DNA from: Fibrobacteria bacterium
Lineage (GTDB): Bacteria > Fibrobacterota > Fibrobacteria > UBA11236
Direction of reading: 5' to 3'
DNA length: 64,000 nt
Assembly: GCA_017881725.1 (NCBI GenBank)
Contig: JADGQO010000135.1
Span: forward strand, 65,807 to 129,806
Each line of letters opens with the position of its first letter. Position 1 is the first letter of the stretch. The position numbers and the translations under genes are program-made. Positions 880 to 22,262 of this stretch are shown piece after piece. The notes beneath the pieces were generated by a model. That model was not told the DNA's origin. It saw nothing but the letters and a program-made list of their open reading frames with translations, and made no database searches.

Positions 880-3068
880 CGAGCATCAACAGCGAACCCA
901 AGGCATCGAGTCCGCCGAGCCTCAGCCTGCTTCCCAAGGGCATAGCCGGAATGGATTCCTTGACGGAGCTGGCGCTCGATTTGCGCTGGTCCTGGAATCA
1001 TGCAACCGACAAAGTCTGGCGCGTGCTGGATCCCGGTTTGTGGGAGGCGACGCATAATCCCCTGGTGGTCCTGCAAACCATCTCCCGTGAGCGGATTGAA
1101 AATTCCTTAGCCGATCCGGGATTCCGGGAGACGCTCGACTTTTTGGTGGCCAGGAATCGCACGGCCGCGAAGGCGCCGTCCTGGTTCGGCAGCAAGCATG
1201 CGGAAGGTCCGCTGCGCACCATCGCGTACTTCAGCATGGAGTTCATGTTGAGCGAGGCCTTGCCGATTTATTCCGGTGGGCTGGGCAACGTGGCCGGAGA
1301 TCAATTGAAGGCGGCCAGCGATTTGGGCGTGCCCGTGATCGGCGTGGGTCTCCTTTACCAGCAGGGTTATTTCCGCCAGGCGATAGCCCGGGACGGATCG
1401 CAACAGGCGCTTTATCCGTACAATGATCCAGGGCAGTTGCCCATCTCGCCTTTGCGGCATGCGAATGGGGAATGGCTGCGTTTGGAGATCGCGCTCCCTG
1501 GATACTCCGTCTGGCTGCGGGCCTGGGAAGTGCGGGTCGGCAGGGCGAAGCTTTACCTTTTGGACAGCAACGACGCCGCGAATTTTCCCGCGCATCGCGG
1601 CATTACCAGCGAACTCTACGGGGGCGGTCCGGAGTTGCGTCTTAAGCAGGAACTGCTGCTCGGCATCGGTGGCTGGAGATTGCTGCGCGCTCTCGGCATC
1701 CAGCCGGAAATCTGCCATCTCAACGAAGGCCACGCCGCCTTCGCCGTGCTCGAACGCGCCTCCGACACCATGGTTTCCAAATCGTTGCCCTTCGAAAAGG
1801 CTTTGGCCCTCACGCGGGTCGGAAATCTTTTCACCACGCATACGGCGGTCCCGGCGGGATTCGATCGCTTCGCGCCCGCGCTCATCGAACCGTACCTTGG
1901 AAGTTACGCCAGAAATAAACTCGGAATTTCTCTCCGGGACCTGCTGGCGCTTGGGCGAGCGAATCCCAATGATAGTGGCGAGCCCTTCAATATGGCCTAC
2001 TTGGCAATCCGCGGGAGCGGGGCCGTCAACGGAGTCAGCCGCTTGCATGGGCAGGTCAGCCGCCGGCTTTTCGCGCCGCTTTTCCCGGGTCGCCGCGAAG
2101 AGGATGTGCCCATCGGACACGTGACCAACGGCGTCCACATGCCGACCTGGGATTCGGATCGGTCCGATGCGCTATGGACCGAAGCCTGCGGCAAGGACCG
2201 CTGGCTGGGTACCACCGAAGATTTGGCCGGCAGCATCCGGCAGGTATCGGATGAAAAACTCTGGGGTCTGCGGGTGGAATCCAGAAAATGTTTGGTGGAA
2301 TTCACGCGCAAGCGCCTGGCGCTGCAATTGGCGGTTTCCGGCGCGCCGCCTGCCGAAGTGGAGGAGGCTAAACACCTATTCCATCCCGACGCCTTGACCT
2401 TGGGCTTCGCGCGACGATTCGCTGCCTATAAAAGGCCCAACCTGCTTTTGCGGGATCCGGAACGTCTGCTCCGCATTCTGACCGACACGGCGCGACCCGT
2501 ACAGCTCATCCTCGCGGGCAAGGCGCATCCGCAGGACCATGACGGGCAGGCTTTAATCCTGGAGTGGATGAAATTCCTGCGCCGGCCCGAGGCGCGGCCG
2601 CATGTGATTTTCCTGAGCGACTACGATATGCGCTTGACGGAGCATTTGGTGCAAGGCGTGGATGTTTGGATCAATACGCCTAAACGGCCCTGGGAAGCCA
2701 GCGGCACCAGCGGCATGAAGGTGCTGGTCAACGGCGGCCTCAACCTATCGGAGCTGGATGGCTGGTGGGCCGAGGCCTATGCGCCGGAAGTGGGATGGGC
2801 TTTGGGAGATGGGCTGGAACACGGCGACGATCCCGGGCTGGACGGTCGGGAGGCGGATGCGCTGTATGGACTTTTGGAACGGGAAGTCGTGCCCGAATAT
2901 TATGCTCGGAACGGGAACGGCATTCCGGTCGCGTGGACCGGTCGGATTCGGGAAAGCATGGCGCGACTGACTCCGGAATTCTCGGCCAACCGGACCGTGC
3001 GCGAATACACGGAGCGGTATTACCTGCCCGCGGCGGAAGCCTACCTGGCGGGATCATCGCATGCGTAA
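876..3068 (+). CDS. glgP: Alpha-glucan (glycogen/maltodextrin) phosphorylase, GT35 family with DUF3417-type N-terminus
   Basis: 730 aa with motifs 'NEGHAAF' and '[15 protein letters not shown]'. The latter matches the PLP-lysine motif EASGTSNMKFxLNG of glycogen phosphorylases. It overlaps PPK2 by 4 bp and the HAD gene by 8 bp. Confidence 0.85.
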
Positions 3069-3714
3069 AAAATCCGAGGTAACCTGCCTGTTTCTGGACA
3101 TCGGGGGTGTGCTCCTGAGCAACGGTTGGGATCACCATGCGCGCAAACGCGCCGCCATCCGATTCAAGCTCGAGCGGGCGGAGATGGAGGAGCGCCACCA
3201 ACTGAACTTCGAGACTTATGAAATGGGAAAGATCACGCTCATCGAATACTTGGAGCGGGTGATTTTCCACCGCAAGAGACCGTTCACTCCGACGACGTTC
3301 AAAAAATTCATGTTCGCCCAGTCCCAAGCCATCCCCGGCATGATCGATCTGATGGCCCGGTTGAAGGCCCGTCACGCTTTGAAGATAGCCGTGGTCAGCA
3401 ACGAGGGCCGCGAGCTGAATGACTTCCGGATCGAGGCGTTCAAATTGGGCGGGCTCGTGGACTTTTTCATTTCCTCCTGTTTTGTGCAATTGCGAAAGCC
3501 GGATGCGGCGATTTTCCAAATGGCCTTGGACATCGCCCATGTACCGACAAGACAAATCCTTTATCTCGAAAACACGGCCTTGTTCGTGGAGGTCGCGGAG
3601 GGATTGGGGATCCGCAGCATCTTGCATACCGATCGGGCTTCCACGGAAAGCGCACTGGGATCGTTCGGATTGTCCGCTCCGATTGGAATGGCCACGAGGA
3701 AGAGGTCCCGATGA
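3061..3714 (+). CDS. HAD-superfamily hydrolase (subfamily IA-like), substrate unknown
   Basis: 217 aa with an N-terminal 'LFLDIGGVLL' motif-I-like loop and 'KPD' motif III. It is translationally coupled between glgP and ackA. Confidence 0.55.
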   Translation: MRKKSEVTCLFLDIGGVLLSNGWDHHARKRAAIRFKLERAEMEERHQLNFETYEMGKITLIEYLERVIFHRKRPFTPTTFKKFMFAQSQAIPGMIDLMARLKARHALKIAVVSNEGRELNDFRIEAFKLGGLVDFFISSCFVQLRKPDAAIFQMALDIAHVPTRQILYLENTALFVEVAEGLGIRSILHTDRASTESALGSFGLSAPIGMATRKRSR

Positions 3715-4928
3715 AACCTGCCGCCCTCCGCATCCTCACTTTGAATGGCGGCTCTTCGAGCATTAAGTGCGCCCTGTACGAGTCAGGGTCTTCCTTGCGG
3801 CTGATCTGGGAGGGAAGCCTGGAGCGGATTGGACAGCCGGGTACGGTATTCAGGATCAAGTGGCCTGAAAGTACGCAGGGTTTTACCAGGAGTCTGGAAG
3901 GATTTGATGATACGAAGTCGATTCAGGCTGTGGCGGATTGGATCGAAACGGAAGGCGCCCAGGAAGGCCTGGCTGCGGTGGGCCATCGCGTGGTGCAAGG
4001 CGGTCCGGATTTTTTCCAACCCCAGTTGATTACCGACGCCATGCTATCGGACTTGCGGCGGCTGAGCCCCCTTGATCCGGAACATATGCCTGGGGAGATC
4101 CGGATTATCGAAGCCTTTCGGAAAAAGTTCCCGCGGGTGCCGCATATCGCCTGTTTCGATACTGCCTTCCATCACGAGATGCCACACGTAGCGCGGATGT
4201 TACCGATCCCGCGCCGTTACGCATCCCAAGGCTTGCGGCGTTACGGCTTCCACGGCCTTTCCTACGAGTATCTAATGGGGGAGTTGACCCGGCTGGCGGG
4301 ACCGGAAGCCGCGCGCGGCAGGATCATCCTGGCCCATCTCGGCAGCGGAGCCAGTCTGGCGGCGGTGCGTGACGGCAAGCCCGTCGATACGAGCATGGGT
4401 TTTACGCCCGCGTCCGGCCTGGTGATGGGTACGCGGACCGGGGACTTGGATCCGGGACTTTTCAGCTACCTCTCTCGCAAGGAGGGCATGACGGAATCCG
4501 GATTCCAGCGCATGGTGAACCATGAGTCCGGGATGCGCGGCATTTCCGAGACGGTTTCCGATATGCGGGATCTGCTCGCTCGCGAAGCGCGGGATGTGAG
4601 GGCCGCCGAGGCCGTGGAACTATTCTGCTATCAGGCCCGTAAATGGATCGGAGCGTTTGCGGCAGCGCTGGGCGGCTTGGACATCTTGGTGTTCTCCGGC
4701 GGTATCGGCGAACATGCTCCCGTGGTGCGGGCACGGATTTGTGAAGACTTGGGATTCCTCGGCATCGAGATCGATGGAAAAAAGAATGACGTGAACGCGG
4801 AAGTGATTTCGACCGACTCCGGAAAGGTTTCGGTGCGGGTCACACCCACGGATGAGGAGTTGAGGATGGCGCAATTAGTTTCGCAAATTCTTGAAAGTGG
4901 AAATGACCATAAAAAGGAGTCGGTATGA
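3711..4928 (+). CDS. ackA: Acetate kinase
   Basis: 405 aa with an N-terminal 'LTLNGGSSSIKCALY' and a 'GFHGLSYEY' motif. Its stop TGA (4926-4928) overlaps the ATG of the next small ORF. Confidence 0.9.
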   Translation: MKPAALRILTLNGGSSSIKCALYESGSSLRLIWEGSLERIGQPGTVFRIKWPESTQGFTRSLEGFDDTKSIQAVADWIETEGAQEGLAAVGHRVVQGGPDFFQPQLITDAMLSDLRRLSPLDPEHMPGEIRIIEAFRKKFPRVPHIACFDTAFHHEMPHVARMLPIPRRYASQGLRRYGFHGLSYEYLMGELTRLAGPEAARGRIILAHLGSGASLAAVRDGKPVDTSMGFTPASGLVMGTRTGDLDPGLFSYLSRKEGMTESGFQRMVNHESGMRGISETVSDMRDLLAREARDVRAAEAVELFCYQARKWIGAFAAALGGLDILVFSGGIGEHAPVVRARICEDLGFLGIEIDGKKNDVNAEVISTDSGKVSVRVTPTDEELRMAQLVSQILESGNDHKKESV

Positions 4929-5050: not shown

Positions 5051-5103
5051 GCCTAACCCTGAAATAAGTGCATCAGGAAAATTTTTACAACAGGAAGGAT
5101 CAG

Positions 5104-7332
5104 ATGCTGAATACCCTATCCACGGCCAAGCCGGAAAATCCTATCGATAAAGTTGAATCCGCGCCTTTAAAGGAGACGTATTCAAGGGCAGACCCTTCCG
5201 CCTCTGGACCGGTGTATACTTGCCCCATGCATCCGGAGGTCCGGCAAAATAAACCCGGTGCATGCCCCAAGTGTGGCATGGCGCTGGAACCGGTTCAGTC
5301 AGGGACAAAGGCCGCAGCGGAAGGGGACGGGAATACGGAGCTGACCGATATGGAAAGGCGGTTCTGGATTGGCGGAGCGTTGACGCTTCCGGTTTTCCTG
5401 CTGGCCATGGCGCATCTTATCCCGCCCTTGGCACGGCAGGTTTGGATCATGGGTGATGTTTCACGTTGGCTGCAATTCGGCTTGACCACGCCCGTGGTCG
5501 TTTGGGCCGGTTGGCCGTTTTTTCAACGCGGGTGGCGATCGATTCTCACTTGGAATTTGAACATGTTCACCTTGATATCCATGGGAGTCAGCGCCGCTTA
5601 TCTCTTCAGCGCGGTCGCCATGTTGATGCCGGGTTTATTTCCCGTCACCATGGCGCATGGCGGCAAGGTCGCCATCTACTTCGAGGCGGCGGCCGTGATC
5701 ATCGTTTTGGTTTTGCTGGGACAAGTACTGGAACTGCGAGCCCGCAGCCGTACCGGAAGCGCCATCAAAGCGCTGTTGCACCTCGCGCCGCCCACGGCCC
5801 GGCAGGTTTCACCGGATGGAGATAACGTAGTGCCGCTGGAACAGGTCAAGGTGGGCGATTGGCTGCGCGTCGTTCCCGGGGACAAGGTTCCCGTCGATGG
5901 CGCCGTGGTTGAAGGACGCTCCAGCGTGGAGGAGTCCATGATTACCGGCGAAGCGATTCCGGTGGAAAAATCCGTGGGAGACAAGGTGACGGGCGGAACT
6001 GTCAATGGTTCCGGTAGTTTCGTCATGCGCGCCGATAGGGTGGGTAAGGACACGTTGCTGGGGCGAATCGTGGATATGGTCGCCGAGGCGCAGCGCAGCC
6101 GTGCGCCCATCCAGGGTTTGGCGGACAAGGTCGCCAAAATTTTTGTTCCCACCGTGGTGGGCATTTCGATTTTGACCTTCGTTCTCTGGTTCTGGTTGGG
6201 ACCGGATCCCAGGCTGGCGCATGCCATCGTCAACGCCGTCGCCGTCCTGATCATAGCCTGTCCGTGTGCCTTGGGGCTTGCGACACCCATGTCCATCATG
6301 GTCGGGGTGGGGCGCGGAGCCCAGGAAGGCGTGCTCGTGAAAAGCGCGGAGGCGTTGGAAAGGCTGGAGAAGGTGACCACCCTTGTCATCGACAAGACCG
6401 GCACGCTAACGGAAGCCAAGCCCAAGCTGACGGATATCCTCCCCGTGGACGGTTTTGATGCGAAGGAATTTTTGCTGCTGGCCGCTTCGCTGGAACAAAA
6501 TAGCGAACATCCGCTCGCGACCGCCATCGTGAAGGGCGCCAAGGAGAGTGGCGCAGCCCTCGAAAAAGTAGAAGCCTTTCAATCCGTTACCGCCGGTGGG
6601 GTAACCGGCACGGTACGGGGCCGGAAAGTTATCGTCGGCAAATTGGATTTCCTGAAGCAGGAAAAAATCATGGGGTTGGAAGCCATGGCGGCCTCCGCTG
6701 AAAAATTGCAGGCGGAAGGTAAAACCGCGATGTACGTCGCCGTGGACGGACGACCTGCCGGAATCCTAGCGGTAGCTGATCCCATGAAAGCCTCTACGCC
6801 GGACGCCATCAAGGGGTTGCATGCATTGGGGCTTAAAATCGTCATGCTCACAGGAGACAATCGCAAAACCGCCGATGCCGTGGCCGGAAAGCTTGGCCTG
6901 GACGATGTGGTGGCCGGCATTGATCCCGCCGGAAAGGCGGACTATGTCAAGAAATTGCGGGCCGAAGGCCGTTATGTCGCCATGGCCGGTGATGGCATCA
7001 ACGATGCGCCGGCATTGAGCGCCGCCGAGGTTGGCATCGCCATGGGCACGGGCACGGACGTAGCGATGGAAAGTGCCGGCATCACTTTAGTGAAAGGAGA
7101 TTTGGGTGGCATCGCCAAGGCCATCCATCTCAGCCATGCCACCATGCGGAACATCCGCCAGAACCTCGTCTTCGCTTTTCTTTACAACGCGCTGGGCATC
7201 CCGTTGGCTGCCGGAGCGCTCTACCCTTTCTTCGGCTGGCTCCTAAGTCCCATCATCGCCGGCGCGGCCATGAGCCTCAGTTCCGTGTCGGTAATCAGCA
7301 ACGCTTTGCGGTTGCGGAAAGTGGCGATATGA
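5104..7332 (+). CDS. copA: Copper(I)/silver-translocating P1B-type ATPase with N-terminal CPxHPx...CPxCGM heavy-metal-binding domain
   Basis: It has a TM6 'CPC' motif, a TM7 'YNALGIP', a TM8 'MSLSSVS', the phosphorylation motif DKTGTLT and 'GDGINDAP'. The track ORF starts at GTG 5068, but ATG 5104 has an AGGAAGGA SD and is the more likely start. Its stop overlaps the xfp start (ATGA 7329-7332). Confidence 0.9.
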
Positions 7333-9743
7333 AGACCAAAACCCTTGATCCCGAAACGCTGCAAAAGACCAATGCCTATTGGCGCGCCGCCAATTATTTG
7401 TCCGTCGGGCAGATCTACCTCTATGACAATCCCCTGCTGAAAGAACCGCTGAAACTCTCGCATGTGAAACCCTTAGTGGTGGGGCATTGGGGCACCACGC
7501 CGGGTCAGAATTTCATCTACGTCCATCTGAATCGCGTCATCAAAAAATATGACTTGAACATGTTCTACATCGCCGGGCCCGGCCACGGCGGACCGGCCAT
7601 CGTAGGCAACGTTTATCTCGAAGGCACCTGGAGCGAAGTGTATCCGAACGTCACGCAGGACGAAGCCGGTTTGAAAAAACTCTTCAAGCAATTCTCGTTT
7701 CCCGGAGGCATTTCCAGCCATGTGGCGCCCACGACGCCGGGCTCCATTCACGAAGGCGGCGAACTGGGCTATTCCCTCAGCCATGCCTTTGGCGCGGTCT
7801 TCGACAATCCCGATCTCATCGTCGCCTGCGTCGTCGGAGACGGTGAAGCGGAAACCGGCCCCTTGGCCACCGCGTGGCAGTCCAATAAGTTTCTCGATCC
7901 GATCTCGGACGGAGCCGTGCTGCCCATCCTGCATCTCAACGGCTACAAGATTTCCAATCCTACCGTGCTGGCCCGCATTGAACCGGATGAACTGGATCAA
8001 TTTTTTCGCGGCTGCGGCTGGACGCCTTATTTCGTTGAAGGCGACGACCCGGAAACCATGCACGAACTTATGGCCACCATGGCGGATAAAGCCATTGAGG
8101 ATATTCGCAACATCCAAAGCAACGCCCGTAACCGGAATGATACTACCCGCCCGCGCTGGCCCCTGATCGTGCTCCGATCACCCAAGGGTTGGACGGGACC
8201 GAAAGAAGTAGATGGGCTCAAAGTCGAAGGTACCTTCAGGGCGCATCAAGTGCCGTTAATAGTGAACGCGGAGCATCCCGAACATGTCGCGCAATTGGAA
8301 AGCTGGATGAAAAGCTACCGGCCCGAGGAATTGTTTGATAAGAGCGGCCGGCTCATTACGGAATTGGCTGAGCTGGCGCCGCAAGGTAACCGAAGAATGG
8401 GCGCGAATCCCCATGCCAACGGCGGCGTTTTGTTGCGCGATTTGAAAATGCCCGATTTCCATGCCCATGCGGTGCAGGTGCATGTGCCCGGCGCCGTGGA
8501 CGCACAGGATACGCTCGTGCTGGGAAATTTCCTACGCGATGTGACGCGGCTTAACCAGGAACGACGTCATTTCCGCATATTCGGCCCGGATGAGACGTTG
8601 TCCAATTTGCTGGGCGCGGTTTTTGAAGTCACCAACCGGCAATGGGATGGGCGCCAGAAAGGTGAGGATGAATTTCTCGCGCCCGCCGGAACGGTGTTGG
8701 ATTCGATGCTCAGCGAACACCAATGCGAGGGCTGGCTGGAAGGGTACCTGCTGACCGGTCGGCACGGCCTCTTCAACAGCTACGAGGCGTTCATCCGCAT
8801 CGTCGACTCGATGTTCAGCCAGCATGCCAAATGGCTCAAGGTAACCTCCGAGCTACCTTGGCGGCGGAAAATCGCGTCATTGAACTATCTGCTGGCCTCC
8901 CATGTGTGGCAGCAGGATCACAACGGATTCACGCATCAGGATCCGGGATTCATCGACCATGTCATCAACAAGAAGGCCGACATCGTGCGGGTTTACTTGC
9001 CGCCCGACGCCAATTGCCTGCTCTCGGTATTTGACCATTGCCTGCGCAGCCGGCATTACGTCAATGTGGTGGTGGCCGGGAAACACGCCCTGCCGCAATG
9101 GCTATCCATGGACGCGGCGGTGGTGCATTGCACGGAGGGCATCGGCATCTGGCAATGGGCCAGCAATGACCAGGGCAGTGATCCGGATGTGGTGATGGCC
9201 TGTTGCGGCGACACACCCACGCTGGAGATTCTGGCGGCCGTTTCCATCCTGCGCGAGCATATTCCCGATCTCAAGATCCGGGTGATCAATGTCGTCGATC
9301 TTATGAAGCTCCAATCCGCCGGCGAGCATCCGCACGGGCTGAGCGAAATTGATTACGACTCGCTGTTCACCACAAACAAACACATCATCTTCGGTTATCA
9401 CGGCTATCCCTGGCTGATCCATCGTCTGACCTATCGTCGCACCAACCGCAACCTGCACGTCCGTGGGTACAAGGAAGAGGGTACTATCACCACAGCCTTC
9501 GACATGCGCGTGCAAAACGATTTGGACCGGTTCCACCTGGTGCAGGACGTGGTGGATCGCCTACCGCATTTGGGCTCGAAAGGCGCGTACCTGAAGCAGC
9601 AGATGCAGAACAAGCTGATCGAGCACAAGCATTATATCGACGAGCATGGACAGGATTTGCCCGAGATCAGGAACTGGAAATGGGCGGAGCCTACCGGAAA
9701 GGAATCCGGAGCGAAAGCATTTGCGCTGGAATTGAAGGAATAA
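7329..9743 (+). CDS. xfp: Xylulose-5-phosphate/fructose-6-phosphate phosphoketolase
   Basis: 804 aa with '[11 protein letters not shown]', 'GPGHGGPA' and 'EGGELGYSL', which are phosphoketolase/TPP signature regions. Confidence 0.9.
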
Positions 9744-9776: not shown

Positions 9777-10805
9777 ATGAATACCCAACTTCTTTTCGAC
9801 ACCGCGAAAAATTTGCTCGCCGACGGCAAGGGCTTGCTGGCCATGGATGAAAGCAATCCCACCTGCAATAAACGTTTCGCCAAGCAGGGCATTCCGCAAA
9901 CCGAAGCCGCGCGCCGCGAGTACCGGGAGTTGATCGTGACCACGCCCGGTCTTGGTGAGTCCATCGGAGGCGCGATTCTATATGACGAAACCATTCGCCA
10001 GAAAAAGCGGGATGGCACGCCTTTCGTCAAAGTCCTCCAGGATGCCGGCATCATTCCCGGCATCAAGGTGGACGTCGGCGCCAAAGACTTGGCCGGTTAT
10101 CCCGGAGAAAAAATTACCGAGGGGTTGGATGGGTTGCGCGAACGCCTTCAAGCGTATTTTCAAATGGGCGCGCGCTTCGCCAAATGGCGCGCGGTGATTC
10201 AGGTGGGCCACGGCATTCCCAGTCGTGGTTGCATAAACGCCAATGCCCATGCCTTGGCGCGCTATGCCGCGTTGTGTCAGGAAGCCGGAATGGTTCCCAT
10301 CGTCGAGCCGGAGGTGCTGATGGACGGCGAGCATAATATGGAGCGCTGCCGCGAGGTAACCGAGGAGTTACTGCGGACGGTTTTCCATCACTTGTCTGCG
10401 CAACGCGTGCTGCTGGAAGGCATGCTTTTGAAGGCCAATATGGTGTTGCCGGGATCGGCCTGTTCGCAACAAGCCTCCCTTGAGGAAGTGGCCGACGCCA
10501 CCGTCCATTGTTTCCTGCGCACGGTTCCCGCCGCTGTTCCCGGAATCGCTTTCTTGTCCGGGGGCCAACCCGGCCTATCAGCCTCGGCCCGCTTGAATGC
10601 CATGAATATGCGCTTCAAGGATCGATTGCCTTGGGCCTTGGCCTTTTCGTTTGCACGGGCCATCCAACAACCGGCGCAGGAGATATGGCGGGGCAGGGAA
10701 GCCAACGTGGCGGCGGCGCAGCAAGCTCTTTCCCATCGGGCCGCCTGCAACCGGGCGGCACGCCGCGGCGAATACAATGAACCAATGGAGACGGAAAATG
10801 CATGA
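9777..10805 (+). CDS. fba: Fructose-bisphosphate aldolase class I
   Basis: 342 aa. 'LEGMLLKANMVLPGS' matches the Schiff-base lysine region of class I aldolases; 'LLAMDESNPTC' and 'IIPGIKVD' are also present. Confidence 0.85.
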   Translation: MNTQLLFDTAKNLLADGKGLLAMDESNPTCNKRFAKQGIPQTEAARREYRELIVTTPGLGESIGGAILYDETIRQKKRDGTPFVKVLQDAGIIPGIKVDVGAKDLAGYPGEKITEGLDGLRERLQAYFQMGARFAKWRAVIQVGHGIPSRGCINANAHALARYAALCQEAGMVPIVEPEVLMDGEHNMERCREVTEELLRTVFHHLSAQRVLLEGMLLKANMVLPGSACSQQASLEEVADATVHCFLRTVPAAVPGIAFLSGGQPGLSASARLNAMNMRFKDRLPWALAFSFARAIQQPAQEIWRGREANVAAAQQALSHRAACNRAARRGEYNEPMETENA

Positions 10806-11052: not shown

Positions 11053-11247
11053 ATGACCATGAATCAAACGATTACATCCAAGACCAAAGACCCCATGTGC
11101 GGAATGACCGTGGACCCGGCAACGGCTCTCCACGCCGAGCGCGATGGGAAGACGTCCTACTTTTGCAGCAAACATTGTCAGGAAAAATTCTTGTCCACTC
11201 CCGCTGGTGCCAAACCGGAGGAAAAGTCTGGAGGTTGCTGTAGCTAG
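11053..11247 (+). CDS. YHS-domain (TRASH-like) metal-binding protein
   Basis: 64 aa with 'DPMCGMTVDP...YFCSKHCQEKF', a YHS-domain cysteine pattern, and a C-terminal 'GGCCS'. Confidence 0.7.
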   Translation: MTMNQTITSKTKDPMCGMTVDPATALHAERDGKTSYFCSKHCQEKFLSTPAGAKPEEKSGGCCS

Positions 11248-11402: not shown

Positions 11403-12398
11403 ATGATACCCATGTATCCCCTGCGATTTGATCCGATTTACCAATACCGGTTATGGGGCGGACGTCGTTTGGCGCATTTGCTTAAGGCGCCATTGCCGGG
11501 CGATGAACCCATCGGCGAAGCCTGGCTGTTGAGTGATCGTGAAGATCATTCCAGCCGCGTCGCTGCGGGACCGCTTAAGGGCCAAACCTTGGGCCAATTG
11601 CTGCGACAAATGCCGGAGCAATTGCTGGGAAAACCGGTCGGACATTTTCCCCGGTTTCCATTGCTGTTGAAGTTTTTGGATGCCCGCACCCTGCTCTCAG
11701 TTCAAGTGCACCTGTCGGATAGTCAAACCGACTATTTGCCGGCGGGCGAACTCGGAAAAACCGAAGCCTGGGTGGTGCTGGAGACGGGGCCTAAAAGCCG
11801 TATCTACGCAGGCTTGAAGCCAGGCGTGACCGTGGGCTTAATGCGGCGCGCGGTCGCAACCGGGTCGGTGGCGGATCATTTGGCGGGTTTCAAACCCAAT
11901 CCCGGCGACGCGGTTTTCCTGCCGGCCGGCACGGTACATTCGCTCTGCGATGTAGTGGTGTTCGAAGTGCAGGAAAACAGCGACGTGACTTTTCGCCTTT
12001 CTGACTGGGACCGCATCGATGCCAAAACCGGGAAGCCCCGGCCTCTGCAAGTGGATGCGGCGTTGGCCTGCCTGGATTTTTCGCAGGGCGCAATCGCAGC
12101 GGTGACGCCGGTGGTGGAAGAAACTCGGCCGATATTTCGCGAGAGACTTTTTGATTGTAAACATTTTGCCTTGCGGCGACTTCGCGCGGGATCTCCGTTT
12201 ACGGTCGGTGCTCCGAGCAGGCTGCGGATTCTGGTGTGTCTTTCCGGCGACGGTCAGGTGCAATATGGCGGGATCGATTACCCCATCGGCACCGGCGATA
12301 CGCTGCTCTTGCCGGCCGCGGTGGGCAAGTGCATGTGCCGACCGAATGCTTCCATCACCATGTTGGAAATTTCCCTTCCCGAAGAAAGCCATCCATGA
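11403..12398 (+). CDS. manA: Mannose-6-phosphate isomerase, type I (PMI)
   Basis: 'YPLRFDPIYQYRLWGG...GEAWLLSD' is the N-terminal type I PMI signature. The ORF track starts at 11313, but ATG 11403 (MIPMYPL) matches the homologous N-terminus. Confidence 0.8.
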   Translation: MIPMYPLRFDPIYQYRLWGGRRLAHLLKAPLPGDEPIGEAWLLSDREDHSSRVAAGPLKGQTLGQLLRQMPEQLLGKPVGHFPRFPLLLKFLDARTLLSVQVHLSDSQTDYLPAGELGKTEAWVVLETGPKSRIYAGLKPGVTVGLMRRAVATGSVADHLAGFKPNPGDAVFLPAGTVHSLCDVVVFEVQENSDVTFRLSDWDRIDAKTGKPRPLQVDAALACLDFSQGAIAAVTPVVEETRPIFRERLFDCKHFALRRLRAGSPFTVGAPSRLRILVCLSGDGQVQYGGIDYPIGTGDTLLLPAAVGKCMCRPNASITMLEISLPEESHP

Positions 12399-13177
12399 AG
12401 AAACTGATTGTGTTTGACCTGGACGGCACGCTGGCCGAAAGCAAATCATCCCTTGATGCCGAAATGGCCGCGCTGCTCAACATCTTGCTGGGCCTTACAC
12501 AGGTGGCCGTCATTTCCGGCGGCAATTGGCCGCAATTTGAAAAACAGGTGCTCGCCAACCTGGCGCATGATCAGCACCTGAAAAATCTTTCGCTGCTCCC
12601 CACTTGCGGAACGAAGTTTTACCGCAATGAATCGGATTGGAAATTGATTTACTCGGAAGATTTTACGGCGGATGAAAAAAGGAAAATCATCGCAGGTTTG
12701 GGAAAGGCGATGGACTTGCCGGGCATCAAGGCCGAAAAAAGTTGGGGAGAATTGGTGGAGGATAGGGGAAGCCAGATCACTTTCTCAGCGCTGGGACAGC
12801 AGGCGCCTCTAGAAGAAAAAAGGAAATGGGATCCGGATTTCGCCAAACGGAAGCGCATGAAAACCCAGCTGGATCAAACCATCCCCGAATTCTCCGTGCG
12901 ATTGGGCGGCATGACTTCCGTGGACGTCACCAAGCCCGGCATTGACAAAGCCTATGGCATCCGTAAACTCCGCGACATACTCGGCATCGCCATTGAGGAA
13001 ATGATTTTTGTCGGTGACGCATTGTTTCCCGGCGGCAACGACTATCCGGTCAAAGAAGCGGGCGCACTGAGCATCCAAGTCAAAGATCCGCATGAGTCGA
13101 AACGGGTGATTGAAGCCATCATTGCCTGTCTGGGCGATGCGCCACCGGTCGTATCGAAAGCGGAAAAGAAATCATGA
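12395..13177 (+). CDS. Eukaryotic-type phosphomannomutase (HAD-IIB, PMM family)
   Basis: 'VFDLDGTLAESKSSLDAEMAALL...VISGG...FEKQV' and the C-terminal 'FVGDALFPGGNDYPV' resemble human PMM2 ('LFDVDGTLTAPRQKITKEM...VVGGSDFEKVQEQL' and 'FFGDKTMPGGNDHEIF', recalled from memory). The ATG overlaps the manA stop (ATGA). The track ORF start at 12236 is a spurious upstream extension. Confidence 0.65.
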   Translation: MKKLIVFDLDGTLAESKSSLDAEMAALLNILLGLTQVAVISGGNWPQFEKQVLANLAHDQHLKNLSLLPTCGTKFYRNESDWKLIYSEDFTADEKRKIIAGLGKAMDLPGIKAEKSWGELVEDRGSQITFSALGQQAPLEEKRKWDPDFAKRKRMKTQLDQTIPEFSVRLGGMTSVDVTKPGIDKAYGIRKLRDILGIAIEEMIFVGDALFPGGNDYPVKEAGALSIQVKDPHESKRVIEAIIACLGDAPPVVSKAEKKS

Positions 13178-14331
13178 GTGATTTTCAATTGCAGCGCTTG
13201 GGTCAAATCATGGAGCCGAAGCCGGGCAATCCACAGGAGGTGGAAGGCGTTCTGAACCCGGCCGCCATGCGCGGCCCCGACGGTCACCTTTATTTGTTTC
13301 CCAGACTCGTCGCGCGGGGCAATTATTCGCGCATCGGAATCGCGCGGGTTATCTTCAACTCAGCAGGCGATCCCACCGGCGTGGAACGGCTCGGCATTGC
13401 GTTGGAGCCAGAAACCGAATACGAAAGGCTGCCGGATGGCGGCGGCGGATGCGAAGATCCACGCATCACCTTTGTCGCCCCGTTACGGCGTTATGTGATG
13501 ACCTATGCGGCGCTTTCCCGGCAAGGACCGCGTATCGCCCTGGCCATTTCCCAAGATTTGTTCCATTGGAAGCGGCTGGGACTCGCGACCTTCGCTCCTT
13601 TCGAAGGCATCGATTTCGTCCACGTGGACAACAAGGATGCCAGCGTTTTCCCCGTCGCCATTCCCAATCATGCCGGAAAAATGCAACTGGCCCTTTTGCA
13701 CCGACCGCTTTTCCCCGGCACGCGCCCCGAAGAAACCTCCTTTCAAAGCGAGTCCCGTGTTGTCGATCGCGATCATGAAAGCATCTGGATTTCCTACTGC
13801 CCCATGATTTTGGATGGTCATGGCCGGGATCGTCTCGGCCTGTTCAACTCGCATCACCGGCTCGCAACTCCGGTGTCGCCTTGGGAGCGGCTCAAGATAG
13901 GCGGCGGCACTCCGCCCATCATGACCCGGCACGGCTGGTTGATTCTGTATCATGGCGTGAGAAAAATGGCGGAGCCGGACCCGCGCGGATGCCAACTCTG
14001 CTACTCAGCGGGAGTTATGGTGCTTGACCCGGAGCATCCGCGCATCATCCACTACCGTTCGACGGATCCAGTGTTGACACCGATGTTACCCCAGGAACGC
14101 AACGGCACCATCGCCAACGTCGTTTTTCCTACGGGAATCGATCGGCGCGATGATCTCGGGTTGCCGGATCGCTTCGACGTCTACTATGGAATGGCCGATA
14201 ACCGCATCGGCGCGGTGCGCCTGGATGTGCCGGATATTCTGCCGCCGGGTAACGCGGCCGATACGGCGGCATCGGGTTCAAACGCGCCTATCTTTGGAAA
14301 TTCCAAACCTCGCAACCCTGAAAGAAAATAA
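13174..14331 (+). CDS. GH130-family beta-mannoside phosphorylase / glycosidase (DUF377)
   Basis: 385 aa. 'VLNPAAMRGPDGHLYLFPRLV', 'CEDPRI' and 'YYGMADNRIGAV' fit the GH130 five-bladed propeller phosphorylases. Its start overlaps the PMM stop. Confidence 0.8.
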   Translation: MSDFQLQRLGQIMEPKPGNPQEVEGVLNPAAMRGPDGHLYLFPRLVARGNYSRIGIARVIFNSAGDPTGVERLGIALEPETEYERLPDGGGGCEDPRITFVAPLRRYVMTYAALSRQGPRIALAISQDLFHWKRLGLATFAPFEGIDFVHVDNKDASVFPVAIPNHAGKMQLALLHRPLFPGTRPEETSFQSESRVVDRDHESIWISYCPMILDGHGRDRLGLFNSHHRLATPVSPWERLKIGGGTPPIMTRHGWLILYHGVRKMAEPDPRGCQLCYSAGVMVLDPEHPRIIHYRSTDPVLTPMLPQERNGTIANVVFPTGIDRRDDLGLPDRFDVYYGMADNRIGAVRLDVPDILPPGNAADTAASGSNAPIFGNSKPRNPERK

Positions 14332-14617
14332 ACCAAGGAGAAATCATGCCCATTCAAATTCAGGAAGAAATCAATGGCAAAGCGAAATAGACGATTCGAT
14401 ACTTCGATCACACGGATACAATTGCCGCCAGGAAGTGGTTGTTTGACGCCCTGCGAATTGCGCCCCGTATGAGTCCCATGGAATGGAATTCCCCGAAATG
14501 AAGATCGCTAGGGCTGCCAATATTTTTCAGCGAAGTTGGGTTGGCTGCGATAGTCCTGAAAACGTATTTCAACCATGGAATCAGTCCGAGCAACCATAGT
14601 CACTAAAGGACAATCGA

Positions 14618-16933
<2,316 letters not shown>

Positions 16934-16941
<8 letters not shown>

Positions 16942-17269
16942 GGAGACAAAAGGAAAGTCCGACAGCGGGGACGGGTTTGGGGAGCGGGTGGGGGCCAAGG
17001 CCGATCGCTTGCTTAAGGTGAAACGGCATCCGCCTCAGGGAGTCTGGTTTGGACTGGGCATGATGGGCCTGATCGGCTGGTCGGTGGTGATCCCCACCGT
17101 AACCGGTGCGTTACTGGGGTTGTGGCTGGACGCGCGCCATCCCGGCAGCCATTCCTGGACCTTGGCGCTTTTGATGGCCGGTCTGGTGCTGGGATGCGGC
17201 AATGCCTGGCGCTGGGTCGCGAAAGAGGAAAAAGCGATGCGACGGGAACAGGAGGGCGACGATGCATGA
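16934..17269 (+). CDS. atpQ: N-ATPase accessory membrane protein AtpQ (AtpZ/AtpI-like)
   Basis: 111 aa with two hydrophobic helices ('VWFGLGMMGLIGWSVVIPTVTGALLGLWLD'). Its position after atpC matches the N-ATPase operon layout. Confidence 0.5.
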
Positions 17270-17597
17270 GGCCATGAACCGAATAACGACGGGCCTGGCG
17301 GGTCTGGCTGGTTTGGGAATAGGCACAGTCTTCTTCGGCGGCTTGTGGTGGACTGTGCGCCAAGGGGTAACCTCCAAGCGACCGGCGCTTCTTTTCACGG
17401 GCAGCATGGTGGCGCGTATGGGGTTCGCCCTGACCGGATTCTATTTCGTCTCGGCTCACCATTGGGAACGCGCGGTAGCCTGCCTGATCGGCTTTGTCGC
17501 GGCGCGCATGGCCGTGCGCATGACCGTGGAGAAGCTGGCGGGACCGAAATCGGAGCCCCAATCGGCCGAGACCCGGGAGGCCGGGAGTGCGGCTTAG
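17262..17597 (+). CDS. atpR: N-ATPase membrane protein AtpR (conserved intramembrane Arg)
   Basis: Start is MHEAMNRITTG at ATG 17262. It has two TM helices with Arg in 'SMVARMGFALTGF'. It is positioned before atpB, as in N-ATPase operons. Confidence 0.5.
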   Translation: MHEAMNRITTGLAGLAGLGIGTVFFGGLWWTVRQGVTSKRPALLFTGSMVARMGFALTGFYFVSAHHWERAVACLIGFVAARMAVRMTVEKLAGPKSEPQSAETREAGSAA

Positions 17598-18282
17598 CGC
17601 AGATGAATTGGTCTTTTGGAGGCATGGCTTCATCAAGGTCAATGCGACCATCGCCTATACCTGGGGACTGATGATCCTGATGGCCTTGGGCGCCAAACTC
17701 ATCACCCGTAACCTGTCGAAGGATCTCAAGCGATCGCGCTGGCAAAACCTTCTTGAGATCCTGGTCACGGCAATTGGGAAGCAGATCGGTGAAATCGGTT
17801 TGCGCGATCCGGGCAAGTACCTGGGCTTTCTGGGCACTCTTTTCCTGTTTATCGCCATGGCCAATATCTGCACCATCCTACCCGGATATGAACCTCCCAC
17901 GGGTTCGCTCTCGACTACAGCGGCCCTGGCCCTCTGCGTCTTCGTGGCCGTGCCCTATTATGGAATTACGGACCGTGGTTTGGGCGGCTACCTCAAGTCC
18001 TATCTGGAGCCGACTCCCATCATGCTACCGCTCAATATCATCAGCGAGCTTTCCCGCACCTTGGCCATGGCCGTCCGCCTGTTCGGCAATATGATGAGCG
18101 GCGCCATGATCATCGCGATTCTTTTGACCATCACGCCTTTTCTTTTCCCCATTGTCATGACCGCGCTGGGCCTGCTCACGGGAATGGTGCAGGCCTATAT
18201 CTTCAGCATCCTGGCCGCAGTGTACATCGCCGCCGCCACCCGCCCTGTTACTGAACAAAAACCGGAACGAAAACCGAAATGA
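17587..18282 (+). CDS. atpB: N-ATPase Fo subunit a
   Basis: 231 aa. 'LAMAVRLFGNMMSG' contains the essential Arg of subunit a. Confidence 0.85.
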   Translation: MRLSADELVFWRHGFIKVNATIAYTWGLMILMALGAKLITRNLSKDLKRSRWQNLLEILVTAIGKQIGEIGLRDPGKYLGFLGTLFLFIAMANICTILPGYEPPTGSLSTTAALALCVFVAVPYYGITDRGLGGYLKSYLEPTPIMLPLNIISELSRTLAMAVRLFGNMMSGAMIIAILLTITPFLFPIVMTALGLLTGMVQAYIFSILAAVYIAAATRPVTEQKPERKPK

Positions 18283-18297
18283 CCCAAGGAACCTGAT

Positions 18298-18579
18298 ATG
18301 GACTATACCAGCCTCATCGCCATCGCCTCCATCATCACCGCCGGATTCACGACCAGCATCGGATGCATCGCACCCGCCCTGGGGGAAGGGCGATCGGTCG
18401 CGACCGCCTTGACCGCGCTCGCCCAGCAGCCGGACGCCTCCGCCACCATTACGCGGACCTTGTTCATCGGACTCGCCATGATCGAGTCCACGGCCATCTA
18501 TTCCTTTGTGGTCTCCATGATCCTCATCTTCGCGAACCCGTTCTGGAACCATGTCATCGCTCAGGCCGCGGGGAAGTGA
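18298..18579 (+). CDS. atpE: N-ATPase Fo subunit c with complete Na+-binding ligand set
   Basis: 93 aa. Helix 1 has 'ALAQQPD' (Gln); helix 2 has 'GLAMIESTAIYSF' (Glu-Ser-Thr...Tyr). This is the Q...ESTxxY pattern of Na+-translocating c-rings such as Ilyobacter tartaricus. Confidence 0.85.
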   Translation: MDYTSLIAIASIITAGFTTSIGCIAPALGEGRSVATALTALAQQPDASATITRTLFIGLAMIESTAIYSFVVSMILIFANPFWNHVIAQAAGK

Positions 18580-18582
18580 TCC

Positions 18583-19407
18583 ATGCTCATCGACTGGTTC
18601 ACCGTCGGCGCCCAGGCGTTGAACTTTATCATCCTAGTCTGGCTGATGAAGCATTTTCTGTATAAGCCAATTCTCAATGCCATCGACGCCCGCGAGCAGC
18701 GCATCGCGAAGGAGATCGCGGATGCCGATGCCAAGAAGGCGGAAGCCTCGAAGGAGCAGGAAGAGTTCCGGAAAAAGAACGAGACCTTCGACAAGGAACG
18801 CACCGACCGGTGGGCCAAGGCCGGCGAAGAGGCGAAAACCGAAGGCGCAAGGCTCCTCACCGAGGCCCGTAAAGTCGCCGATGCCTTGAGCGCCAAGCGC
18901 CGCGAAAGCCTGGCGAGCGATGCCCGCAATCTCAACGACGCCATTCTGCGGAAAACCCAACAGGAGGTTTTCGCCATCGCGCGGAAAGCGCTGGGGGATC
19001 TCGCCTCCACCGGATTGGAGCAAAGCCTGGCAGGGGTTTTCATCCGCAAGTTGGGTGAGATGGACGCCCCGTCCAAAGAAATTTTCGGCGCGGCCCTTAA
19101 GTCCTCTGACTCTCCGGCCGTGGTCAGGAGCGCCTTTGATCTGCCACAAGATGCGCGCGATGCCGTCCAGAAGGCCCTTAATGAAACTTTTTCGACCGAG
19201 GTCCGCCTCAGCTTTGTGACCGCGCCGGATTCGATTGGCGGCATCGAACTCGCGGCCAATGGCCAGAAGGTATCGTGGAGCATCGCGAATTACCTGGGCT
19301 CTCTGGAATCGGCCGTGAGCGAACTCGCGGATCCCAAAGCCAAGGCCACGCCCGCAACAACGGCTGCGCCCGCAACGATCGGAGCATCCGATGGAAGCCA
19401 TGCCTGA
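18583..19407 (+). CDS. atpF: N-ATPase Fo subunit b (long, 274 aa; no separate delta gene in operon)
   Basis: An N-terminal TM helix is followed by a long charged coiled-coil '[28 protein letters not shown]'. Confidence 0.7.
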
Positions 19408-21064
19408 AAACCTGGAAGGCGCCGTCGACCGGGCCCTCGCTGGCCTGAGGCAAATCCGCGAAAACTTTCGGCCGCAGATCATTCCCCATGAGGTGGGCCT
19501 GATCGCATCGGTATCGACAGGTATCGCCAAGGTTACGGGGTTGCCGGGCGTGGGTTACGAAGAACTTATCCGATTCCCGGGCGGGGTCTCCGGCATCGCC
19601 TTCAATGTGGACGAAAACGAAATCGGCGTTGTGTTGCTTGGCGAATACTGGCACCTCCAGGCCGGCGATGAGGTGGAACGTACGGGGCGCGTCATGGACG
19701 TCCCCGTGGGCGACGGGCTGCTTGGCCGCGTACTCGATCCGCTCGGACGGCCGCTGGATAACCATGGTCCAGTCGCTTCGCAGGGAAGGCTGCCCATCGA
19801 AAGGCCGGCGGCGGCCATCATGGATCGTGCGCCGGTCACAGTGCCGCTGCAAACGGGACTCAAGGTGATCGATGCGCTCATTCCCATTGGGCGCGGGCAG
19901 CGCGAATTGATTCTCGGGGACCGGCAAACCGGCAAGACCGCCATCGCGCTCGACACCATTCTCAACCAAAAGGGCAAGAACGTTCTCTGCGTCTACTGCG
20001 CCATCGGCCAGCGCGCCTCGGCCGTGGCCAAGGCGGTTGCGGTCCTCCAGGAAAAAGGCGCGATGGAATATACGGTGGTGGTCGTATCGGAAGGCAACGA
20101 TCCTCCCGGGCTCGCTTATATCGCCCCCTATGCCGCAACCAGCATCGCCGAGCATTTCATGGAGACTGGCCGCGACGTGCTCATCGTCTATGATGATCTC
20201 ACCCAACATGCGCGCGCTTACCGCGAATTATCCCTGCTGCTCCGCCGCCCGCCCGGCCGTGAAGCCTTTCCCGGGGACATCTTCTATATCCATTCCCGCA
20301 TGCTCGAACGCGCCACCCACTTGGGCAAGGAGCATGGCGGCGGTTCGTTGACCGCCCTGCCCATCATCGAAACCGAGGCGCAAAACATCTCCGCCTATAT
20401 TCCCACCAATCTGATTTCGATTACCGACGGACAGATCTACCTGTCGCCGAGCCTGTTCGAGTTGGGCGTATTGCCCGCCGTGGACGTTGGCAAATCCGTT
20501 TCCCGCGTGGGCGGCAAGGCGCAGCGGGCCGCCTATCGGGCCGTTGCCGGCGATCTCAAATTGGCCTATGCGCAATTCGAAGAGCTGGAAACCTTCGCAC
20601 GTTTCGGCGCGCGTCTGGACGATGACACGCGCAAGAAGCTGGAGCACGGTCGTCGCATCCGCTCCTGCCTCAAACAATCAGAATTCTCCCCCGTCTCTGT
20701 ACCCGCGCAGATCATGGTCCTCCTGGCTTTGACCGGCGGCCTGTTTGATCCGGTCCCGATGGAGAAAATGAAAGAGGCGGAAAAGGCCGTCCAGGCTGCT
20801 GCGACGGATATCCCGCAGGAAATCGTAACCCGCTTCGAAGCCACGGCGAAACTGGCCGACGACGATCGGAAAGCCATCCTCGCCATTGCCGATAAGACCC
20901 TGACGCCCTTCCGGCCCAAGCCCAATCCGGATGACAAGGACAAAGCAAAGGTCGATAAAAAAGTAGCCTCCAATACCGATGCGAAGGCCGACTTGAACCA
21001 TGAGGCGAAGTCCGAAGCAAAGACCACGGCCAAACCTAGTCCGGTAAACGAGGCGGCCGCTTGA
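19391..21064 (+). CDS. atpA: N-ATPase F1 alpha subunit with about 45-aa Lys/Asp/Ala-rich C-terminal tail
   Basis: Walker A '[11 protein letters not shown]'. The C-terminus is '...[47 protein letters not shown]'. Confidence 0.95.
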
Positions 21065-21951
21065 GCGAGAACACCGAAAGCCTGCGCCGCAAGATGGCCA
21101 GCGCCGGCGATCTTCAATCCGTTGTCCGCACCATGAAAGCCCTGGCGGCCTCCAGCATCGGTCAGTACGAAAAATCCGTTCAAGCCCTCTCCGAATATTA
21201 TCGAACCGTGGAACTCGGCTTGGCCGTATGCTTCCGGGAAATCCAATCCACCACGCCGGACCCGGCAAGGAAACCGCACGCGGATACGGGCGCCATAGGC
21301 GCAATTGTTTTCGGGTCCGATCAGGGATTGGTAGGTCAATTCAACGAAGTGGTGGCCGACTATGCCATCAAGGCCATCCACGCGCTGGGAACGAAGTCCG
21401 GTAAGCTTCAGGTGTGGGCCGTGGGTGAAAGGGTCCATTCCCATTTAGCCGAAGCGGGGCTTCCCATAGCGGGCCTGTTCGCTGTGCCCACTTCTGTTGC
21501 GGCCATTATTCCCTTGGTCGGGAAAATCCAAATCGCAAGCGAATCCCGACGCGGAACTGACGATACGGCGCGCGTTTTCGTCTTCCACAACCGTCCGCAA
21601 GCCGGCGGCCAATATGAGCCCTTCAGCCAACGTTTATTGCCGCTGGATTCCGAATGGCAACGGGGATTGGCCGATATCAAATGGCCCGTTAAAACGGCGC
21701 CGCAAGTCTTGGCCGGTGCGGCCCCGACCTTGATCTCCCTGGTGCGCGAATATCTGTTCATCTCCCTCTTCCGAGCCTGCGCGGAATCCCTAGCGAGTGA
21801 AAATGCGAGCCGCCTTTCGGCCATGGAACGGGCGGAAAAGAATATCGGGGAATTACTGGAACAGTTGCATGGCACCTTCAACCAACTCCGGCAGAGCGGC
21901 ATCGATGAGGAATTGTTCGACGTGATCTCCGGATTCGAGGCAATGTCGTAA
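21061..21951 (+). CDS. atpG: N-ATPase F1 gamma subunit
   Basis: 296 aa with a gamma-subunit N-terminal helix '[25 protein letters not shown]' and a C-terminal helix. Its start overlaps the atpA stop. Confidence 0.85.
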
Positions 21952-22149
21952 GCCAAACATTAAAACTGACATGCTAGGTCGTCGATATTATAACCGAGAT
22001 GGTAAAAGAGCTTTGACTCTTGCTAGATTTTCCCCCGAGGTGCGGACACTTGCTGCGGACACCCAGGGAGGATCGGCGGTACACGAGGCTAAAAAGTAAG
22101 CGCGACGGGAAGAATCGAGTCGGGCGAAAATGGCGAAATCCTTAAAGAA

Positions 22150-22186: not shown

Positions 22187-22262
22187 TGGAGCGGGTTAAG
22201 AGACTCGAACCCTCGACCTTCTCCTTGGCAAGGAGATGCTCTACCAACTGAGCTAAACCCGC
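22187..22262 (-). tRNA. tRNA-Gly (anticodon GCC), CCA encoded
   Basis: The reverse complement reads GCGGGTT-TA-GCTC-AGTTGGTA-GAGC-A-TCTCC-TTGCCAA-GGAGA-AGGTC-GAGGG-TTCGAGT-CTCTT-AACCCGC-T-CCA. This is a cloverleaf with U8, A9, a GTTCGAGT T-loop and anticodon loop TT-GCC-AA. The T-stem contains two G-U pairs. Confidence 0.8.

Follow-up and report, generated by a model that had tools for sequence, protein, structure and literature searches.

A HAD-type mutase homologue encoded between a mannose-6-phosphate isomerase and a divergent GH130 protein in a widely transferred bacterial gene island

Phosphorylases of glycoside hydrolase family 130 (GH130) yield α-mannose 1-phosphate (Man-1-P), which a phosphomannomutase (PMM) and a mannose-6-phosphate isomerase (PMI) carry on, via mannose 6-phosphate (Man-6-P), to fructose 6-phosphate (Fru-6-P) (PMC4264767). 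Both the enzyme families and this three-step logic are already known, from gut and thermophilic bacteria, and the closest described relatives of the GH130 protein considered here are the cytoplasmic β-1,2-mannoside phosphorylases Teth514_1788, Teth514_1789, Lin0857 and Uhgb_MS. The roles of individual residues in GH130 phosphorylases as opposed to hydrolases, together with the determinants of β-1,2 specificity, have been described (PMC4599007; PMC12814180), and loop L2 has been linked to accommodation of the donor (PMC12814180). On the mutase side, PMMs of the HAD type can double as phosphoglucomutases (PGM), and in Trypanosoma brucei the PMM replaces the PGM (PMC3465800). In a 64,000-nucleotide stretch of contig JADGQO010000135.1 from a Fibrobacteria bacterium (hereafter the window), three adjacent genes encode a PMI, a mutase homologue of the HAD-IIB subfamily and a GH130 protein, and we judge, with moderate confidence, that this trio forms a link between a mannoside and Fru-6-P. 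The use of a HAD-type mutase as the partner of GH130, the uncharacterised GH130 subfamily involved and the setting of the trio in a widely transferred island appear to be undescribed; the literature searched, with most subscription journals outside the search, held no account of the island or of a GH130/HAD-PMM operon.

The three genes lie on the + strand and fill positions 11403 to 14331 of the window, exactly the span delimited by the first-pass annotation of this sequence. The first (11403..12398) encodes a type I (short, Bacillus-type) PMI of 331 aa and runs from an ATG at 11403 to a TGA at 12396-12398. The second (12395..13177) encodes the predicted HAD-IIB hexose-phosphate mutase, a protein of 260 aa from the bacterial PgmH-like family, and its start codon at 12395 (ccATGAag) overlaps the PMI stop as ATGA. 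A second ATGA overlap joins its own stop (13175-13177) to the ATG at 13174 (tcATGAgt) of the third gene (13174..14331), whose product is a divergent cytoplasmic GH130 protein of 385 aa and a predicted β-(1,2-type) mannoside phosphorylase. PMI, HAD-IIB mutase and GH130 form a single translationally coupled unit, and the co-directional arrangement with its two stop/start overlaps bears out the three-gene operon that the annotation had proposed. Promoter and terminator scans gave background-level signals only and were uninformative on the limits of the operon.

The HAD protein carries, near its two ends, all the motifs that had been noted at first reading: FDLDGTL (residues 7-13), EM (23-24), SGGN (41-44), FEKQ (49-52) and GDALFPGGND (207-216), the last of the form GDxxxPGGND. 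In an alignment of 77 sequences, D8, D10, T12, S41, K185, D208 and D216, which represent all four HAD motifs, are invariant, and N215 is retained by nearly all family representatives. Among Pfam profiles, PMM (PF03332) scored highest, at 44.7 bits (cut-off 22.4), through profile positions 84-219 only, corresponding to the cap and the C-terminal core; Hydrolase_3 reached 40.5 bits over residues 151-209 only, a thin margin of 4 bits in favour of PMM. NCBIfam placed the protein in the HAD-IIB subfamily ('HAD-IIB family hydrolase') only. The closest match in the PDB is 4BND, the α-phosphoglucomutase (APGM, also PgmH) of Lactococcus lactis (E 2.6e-43, residues 1-244, 37% identity), followed by fifteen PMM entries from eukaryotes or protists (E 1e-14 to 1e-8); identity to PMMs, including PMM2, is about 25%. 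HAD-type mutases (one α-PGM sequence pair plus PMMs) take the first 17 places among the PDB matches, and the first non-mutase match follows at E 0.008 over about 40 residues. MPGP, sucrose-phosphatase and Cof phosphatase were considered as identities and rejected as best fit: S6PP stayed under its cut-off at 16.4 bits, and the non-mutase PDB matches had E values of 0.008 or above.

An exhaustive HMMER search with the HAD protein as query against 1.84 billion cluster representatives returned 2797 clusters at 50% identity. Most members are of bacterial size (about 250 aa) and 41-69% identical to the query, and 619 clusters have E <1e-30. This HAD mutase family is a large and almost unstudied bacterial one; the only solved structure found in the bacterial clade is that of L. 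lactis APGM. In a neighbour-joining tree built from an alignment of 150 family representatives, APGM and three PMMs, the window protein and its island orthologues fall inside the bacterial clade that contains APGM, with a long branch leading to the PMMs. Because both the tree and the identities (37% to APGM, about 25% to PMMs) place it with the bacterial clade, the protein is, by sequence, a HAD-IIB mutase homologue of the PF03332 type; it belongs to the PgmH-like family of bacteria, which is sister to eukaryotic PMM, and lies outside the PMM1/PMM2 clade. The first-pass annotation had called the middle gene a eukaryotic-type PMM rather than a ManB-type enzyme. The family assignment stands, since the protein is of the PF03332 HAD-IIB type and not an α-D-phosphohexomutase, and PMM, not Hydrolase_3, MPGP or S6PP, is its best profile; the eukaryotic affinity does not stand, as the protein fails to group with PMM1 and PMM2. 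The accompanying remark that such genes are rarely annotated correctly applies to NCBI, which uses the label HAD-IIB family hydrolase, and not to JGI, where many are already labelled phosphomannomutase.

The GH130 protein scored 110 bits against Pfam Glyco_hydro_130 (cut-off 26), and its closest PDB matches are 9FJ8, a 1,2-β-oligomannan phosphorylase (E 1.9e-21), and then 7FIP, a β-1,2-mannobiose phosphorylase. Its catalytic aspartate is D95 in the motif CEDPR, which aligns with the EDPR of 9FJ8, 7FIP and BT3780. In sequence alignments, R177 (LHRP) matches the LHRP of Lin0857 and R168 (SRP) of UhgbMP, and H260 (YHG) matches the phosphate-binding H231 of UhgbMP, a position at which the hydrolases BT3780 and BACOVA_03624 have Asn (YNG). 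K241 aligns with Arg or Lys of Teth514_1788/Teth514_1789, and K154 is retained as a further basic residue. The β-1,2 determinants are likewise retained: E94, beside D95, corresponds to E136 of Uhgb_MS, and K154 to K199 of BT3780. Across 49 sequences (the window protein and 48 orthologues), E94, D95, K154, R177, K241 and H260 are invariant, and the N-terminus shows no signal-like segment. Since the catalytic Asp, the basic phosphate-binding residues and the β-1,2 determinants are all retained, the protein is predicted to be a cytoplasmic inverting mannoside phosphorylase yielding α-Man-1-P, and it probably acts on β-1,2 links; the first reading of the sequence had likewise taken it for a phosphorylase. 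A hydrolase was also considered and rejected, since the protein lacks the Asn/Glu substitutions seen in BT3780 and BACOVA_03624.

Compared with the described β-1,2-mannoside phosphorylases, the GH130 protein thus has the same catalytic Asp, phosphate-binding Arg/Lys/His, β-1,2-specific Glu and Lys and cytoplasmic location, and its product would enter the same onward route through Man-6-P to Fru-6-P (PMC4264767). It differs in being distant from them (E 1e-21), in having a segment after HRP about 25 residues longer than that of Teth514_1788 (approximately residues 178-222, in the region of loop L2, as read off the alignments), and in carrying a C-terminal tail of low complexity (approximately residues 356-385). 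The loci differ as well, in that the window locus has no nearby ABC transporter or extracellular glycosidase and its mutase is HAD-type, not ManB-type. The third enzyme, the PMI, scored 40.3 bits against Pfam PMI_typeI_cat (PF20511; cut-off 22) and 111.4 against TIGR00218 manA, just under the cut-off of 116.2. Its closest PDB match is the Bacillus subtilis PMI 1QWR (E 8.8e-36, residues 5-308), and the zinc ligands Q101, H103, E121 and H179 do not vary among 35 orthologues.

In the route that we propose, whose substrates, direction of flux and physiological trigger are predictions, the GH130 enzyme would use phosphate to cleave a β-mannoside, most likely β-1,2-linked, to α-Man-1-P. The PgmH-family HAD mutase, operating by way of a phospho-Asp8 enzyme with a hexose-1,6-bisphosphate as intermediate, would then convert Man-1-P to Man-6-P, and the zinc-dependent PMI would isomerise this to Fru-6-P, the whole link from the cytoplasmic pool running without ATP. 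The HAD mutase would thereby take the role that a classical α-D-phosphohexomutase (ManB/PMM-PGM) has in other GH130 loci. The sequence from β-mannoside through Man-1-P and Man-6-P to Fru-6-P, already sketched in the first-pass annotation, is the standard GH130 route (PMC4264767). Further steps at the level of the island, which we infer from gene content, would take Fru-6-P to the adjacent phosphoketolase and the resulting acetyl-phosphate to acetate kinase, which would form ATP. In parallel, an α-glucan phosphorylase and polyphosphate kinase 2 (PPK2) may mobilise glycogen and polyphosphate, and the HAD enzyme could also accept α-glucose 1-phosphate (Glc-1-P). Such a scheme would be ATP-sparing and redox-neutral and would suit aerobes deprived of oxygen; its ATP could feed P-type ATPases and an N-ATPase under oxygen, energy or metal stress.

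The trio was followed across 80 loci, kept from 522 relatives in a scan with one genome per species. Neighbours within 6 kb of the HAD gene were counted by means of a tblastn panel; de novo clustering of open reading frames (ORFs) was dropped on account of spurious antisense ORFs. PMI, HAD and GH130 occur in the same order and on the same strand in 47 loci, a recurrence that far exceeds chance, HAD and GH130 without PMI in 7, and PMI and HAD without GH130 in 2. GH130 is the commonest partner (61/80), followed by PMI (52/80). Co-presence of PMI and GH130 gives a Fisher p of 1.5e-5, a value that ignores the shared ancestry of the loci; because their joint presence and absence exceeds chance, PMI and GH130 are functionally tied, the HAD gene being the element that stays constant. 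Other frequent neighbours are a type II cation P-ATPase (42/80; 81% identity), a class I aldolase (36/80) and PPK2 (21/80), and 37 loci have a phosphoketolase gene no more than 6 kb upstream of the HAD gene, with a median identity of 84%. The island genes are all co-directional across loci, and in other genomes the island also includes genes for a hibernation factor (HPF), a PRC-barrel protein, a histidine phosphatase, Nramp, GrpE/DnaJ, Band_7 and metal ATPases.

These proteins are conserved over great taxonomic distances. The HAD protein is 70-80% identical across the 80 loci, and island proteins are 70-90% identical over at least eight phyla, among them Verrucomicrobiota, Planctomycetota, Acidobacteriota, Bacteroidota, Ignavibacteriota, Chloroflexota, Bacillota and Pseudomonadota (delta- and gammaproteobacteria); the best 120 of at least 8000 candidates from the protein search were 74-100% identical to the window protein. 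Mis-binning cannot explain this spread, because many of the loci sit on contigs of 1-5 Mb. The island has spread widely by horizontal transfer. In the window itself, GC and GC3 are nearly alike between the island and the remainder (0.580 vs 0.547), so composition shows no clear sign of a recent arrival. Conservation and spread together point to strong, shared selection, and the pressure behind it, in soils and peat, is likely to be the need to withstand energy, oxygen or metal stress.

Parts of the island are also found on conjugative plasmids (MOBP/MPF_T) of cultured bacteria. In the case of Nitrobacter hamburgensis X14 plasmid 2 (positions 14238-25034 of the extracted locus L084), genes for HAD-IIB (72% identity), GH130 (71%) and phosphoketolase follow one another in order. 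The same region encodes an acetate kinase, a glucokinase, a 1089-aa 'beta-phosphoglucomutase family hydrolase', which is possibly a phosphorylase-mutase fusion, and a histidine phosphatase, and it holds no PMI. A Streptomyces plasmid carries a more distant GH130 (43% identical) in a sugar operon made up of LacI, an ABC transporter, GH130, an oxidoreductase, GH13 and a classical PMM/PGM. This GH130 lineage therefore normally has a mutase partner, and the comparison favours the idea that the island's HAD enzyme took the place of the classical mutase. More speculatively, the HAD mutase and the class I aldolase may serve as stress-proof stand-ins for metal-sensitive housekeeping enzymes.

A number of observations weigh against the trio as a link between mannoside and Fru-6-P. 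The HAD gene is kept without PMI and GH130 in 9 of the 80 loci. On plasmid pBBta01 of Bradyrhizobium sp. BTAi1, GH130 (70% identity) stands alone beside a heavy-metal ATPase gene, with PPK2 nearby. At least 17 sphingomonad plasmid records among the matches listed have a HAD-IIB homologue (about 53% identity) that overlaps the 3' end of a heavy-metal P-type ATPase gene; in Sphingobium sp. SYK-6 pSLPG (locus L086, 9503-12750), the HAD/ATPase pair lies in a metal-resistance region without sugar genes. Lone HAD and GH130 genes beside metal ATPases are not explained by pure sugar catabolism, and the HAD gene is not exclusively a mannose-pathway gene, because of these plasmid pairings and the nine loci lacking both partners. 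The island encodes no source of β-mannoside, no sugar or mannoside transporter and no extracellular mannanase, and we know of no endogenous cytoplasmic β-mannan in bacteria. Moreover, the GH130 protein stayed far under the cut-off of every NCBIfam equivalog, the best being β-1,2-mannobiose phosphorylase with 103 of the 450 bits required, and to our knowledge neither its subclade nor that of the HAD protein contains a characterised enzyme. All three reactions are reversible, so that flux could run either way. The remaining objections concern the sugar specificity of the mutase: in the HAD protein Gln and Lys stand where the PMM2 cap has R134 and R141, and the nearest characterised relative (37% identity), the L. 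lactis enzyme studied by Neves et al. in 2006, is reportedly specific for glucose phosphates and inactive on mannose phosphates.

The cap residues may be compared at six positions, with functional roles that we take to be those assigned in structural work on PMM1 and PMM2. The window protein, which follows the family consensus, has R124, T129, Q135, K142, S175 and D177; PMM2 has R123, N128, R134, R141, S179 and D181; and L. lactis APGM has Arg, A129, Gln, Lys, T175 and N177. The first Arg is thus common to all three, Q135 and K142 are held in common with APGM, and S175 and D177 with PMM2. At A129, T175 and N177, APGM is an outlier of its own family, nearly all of the 150 representatives having Thr, Ser and Asp there. 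In several of these representatives a change of T129 to Ser coincides with a change of S175 to Thr, which suggests that positions 129 and 175 contact each other or the sugar. Overall, the window protein resembles APGM (4BND) in belonging to the HAD-IIB family, in its length of about 250 aa, in its four HAD motifs, in a full-length match and in having Q135 and K142 in place of the PMM2 arginines, but differs from it in the three cap positions at which APGM departs. The genetic setting differs as well: the APGM gene is said to be a stand-alone, essential housekeeping gene, whereas the HAD gene of the window sits between PMI and GH130 within a mobile island. With eukaryotic PMM1/PMM2 (2AMY, 2FUC, 9HN3) the protein has in common the HAD-IIB fold family, DxDGT, GDxxxxGGND, the cap residues R124/S175/D177 (R123/S179/D181) and a passing score against Pfam PMM. 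It differs from them in its identity of about 25%, the long intervening branch, the changes of R134 to Gln, R141 to Lys and N128 to Thr, and the partial coverage of the Pfam profile. Judged by sequence, the preferred substrate may be either a mannose or a glucose phosphate, and an enzyme acting on both is plausible.

This bears directly on the possibility that the HAD enzyme is chiefly an α-phosphoglucomutase serving the α-glucan phosphorylase, with a secondary place in the trio, which we regard as unlikely and which overlaps with the mannoside route if the enzyme is bifunctional. The α-PGM 4BND as best solved relative and the APGM-like Q135 and K142 in place of the PMM arginines speak for glucose phosphate, as does an island that encodes an α-glucan phosphorylase and no other PGM; the nine loci that keep the HAD gene without PMI and GH130 fit as well, and on the Nitrobacter plasmid the HAD gene comes after those for glucokinase and the 'beta-phosphoglucomutase family hydrolase', again with no PMI. 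In the window, however, the HAD gene is coupled on both sides to genes for mannose-pathway enzymes, HAD-GH130 is the most conserved pair across the loci, and the positions at which APGM departs read Thr, Ser and Asp in the HAD protein, the latter two being PMM2 residues. The α-glucan phosphorylase gene, moreover, lies 8 kb away, beyond the 6-kb reach of most loci.

The reversibility of the three reactions also admits a synthetic direction, in which Fru-6-P would pass through Man-6-P and Man-1-P to a β-mannoside, made by reverse phosphorolysis by GH130 (or weakly from GDP-Man) and serving as a stress protectant or reserve. GH130 enzymes acting on β-1,2 links readily make oligomannans from α-Man-1-P, and some also act as glycosyltransferases (PMC4264767, PMC12814180); the unusually long segment after HRP (approximately residues 178-222) in the loop L2 region (PMC12814180), the lack of a sugar transporter and the stress genes found in the island of other genomes (HPF, GrpE/DnaJ, Band_7, metal ATPases) agree with such a role. 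We nonetheless consider net synthesis doubtful, since cellular phosphate normally favours phosphorolysis, the neighbouring phosphoketolase and acetate kinase are catabolic and none of the encoded enzymes would form an acceptor. That the HAD protein is a generic sugar-phosphate phosphatase of the HAD-IIB/Cof type and not a mutase is highly improbable, for although Hydrolase_3 scores close to PMM, NCBIfam gives the HAD-IIB subfamily only and RefSeq names the protein 'HAD-IIB family hydrolase', the Hydrolase_3 match is confined to one segment, the full-length PDB matches are mutases with the best non-mutase match short and weak, and GDxxxxGGND together with cap residues R124, S175 and D177, common to PMM and APGM, is conserved over the 150 representatives.

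If the trio is a link between mannoside and Fru-6-P, the cell may itself produce the mannoside, because the island has no sugar transporter. A tentative and rather improbable extension is that many soil and wetland bacteria of unrelated phyla keep an endogenous cytoplasmic β-1,2-mannoside, which could be a mannogen-like oligomer or a mannosyl solute and which the trio would build and break down reversibly without ATP. It would form a second reserve beside glycogen and polyphosphate, and together these would feed a redox-neutral phosphoketolase/acetate-kinase supply of ATP for ion-pumping ATPases in anoxia or metal stress. The nearest parallel is the mannogen cycle of Leishmania, in which a cytoplasmic β-1,2-mannan reserve is turned over by GH130-like enzymes via Man-1-P (PMC4264767; PMC10913872). 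The likeness is one of idea only, with homology no closer than the family level, and a bacterial counterpart is hypothetical. We know of no bacterial mannogen. The Burkholderia 'lxa' low-oxygen locus was considered as a possible carrier of phosphoketolase, which was not borne out, the word being absent from the paper on that locus. Identification of the mannoside substrate and of the mutase specificity would mend widespread NCBI labels ('HAD-IIB family hydrolase', 'glycosidase') and could uncover a new bacterial reserve or protectant.

The island of which the trio is one module, a context that the first-pass annotation had missed, extends from the left edge of the window to position 21951, at least 22 kb, with all genes on the + strand. 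Upstream of the trio it begins with the PPK2 gene (1..879; Pfam PPK2 219 bits), whose 5' end is cut by the window edge. Within this coding region ARAGORN reported a 95-nt tRNA-Thr (466-560, − strand) that Rfam did not confirm and that is probably a false positive. There follow an α-glucan family phosphorylase of the DUF3417 type, a predicted source of α-Glc-1-P (876..3068; Pfam DUF3417 and Phosphorylase, TIGR02094 775 bits), a HAD-IA phosphatase-like protein (3061..3714; Pfam Hydrolase and HAD_2, with weak NCBIfam matches only) and an acetate kinase (3711..4928; Pfam Acetate_kinase 365 bits). Next come a copper-type P1B ATPase with an HMBD domain (5068..7332; Pfam E1-E2_ATPase and HMBD, TIGR01511 594 bits), an Xfp phosphoketolase that is the likely sink for Fru-6-P (7329..9743; Pfam XFP_N, XFP and XFP_C) and a class I, metal-independent fructose-bisphosphate aldolase (9777..10805; Pfam Glycolytic 437 bits, NF033379 508 bits). 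The 600-bp spacer between aldolase and PMI is occupied by an ORF of 64 aa (11053..11247) that resembles YHS/TRASH metal-binding proteins, with a CGM...C..HC pattern and 71% tblastx identity to a YHS/HMBD gene of the related locus L083; in several related loci the same spacer measures only about 40 bp.

Downstream of the trio, a Met-rich protein of 151 aa (14618..15073) with a hydrophobic N-terminus, MM runs and MxxM patterns has no Pfam or NCBIfam match; it may bind copper in the periplasm, in connection with the Cu-ATPase encoded close by. It is followed by an alternate F1F0 'N-ATPase' operon of nine genes (beta, epsilon, gene1, subunit 2/AtpR, a, c, b, alpha and gamma; 15081..21951), recognised by TIGR03305 (892 bits), TIGR02230, TIGR03165 and the Pfam gamma profile, in a gene order that is the same in locus L083. 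A tRNA-Gly(GCC) gene (22187..22262, − strand; Rfam 69.5 bits, with ARAGORN in agreement) marks the right-hand edge of the island, and an Rfam scan of the island found no riboswitch or other RNA besides tRNA. Beyond the tRNA-Gly lie ordinary housekeeping genes. Farther along the window (34733-40600, + strand), a protein of 1955 aa combines NIDO, Ig-like, HYR, PKD, CHB_HEX_C and Fn3-associated domains and is probably a large protein of the cell surface with no connection to the trio.

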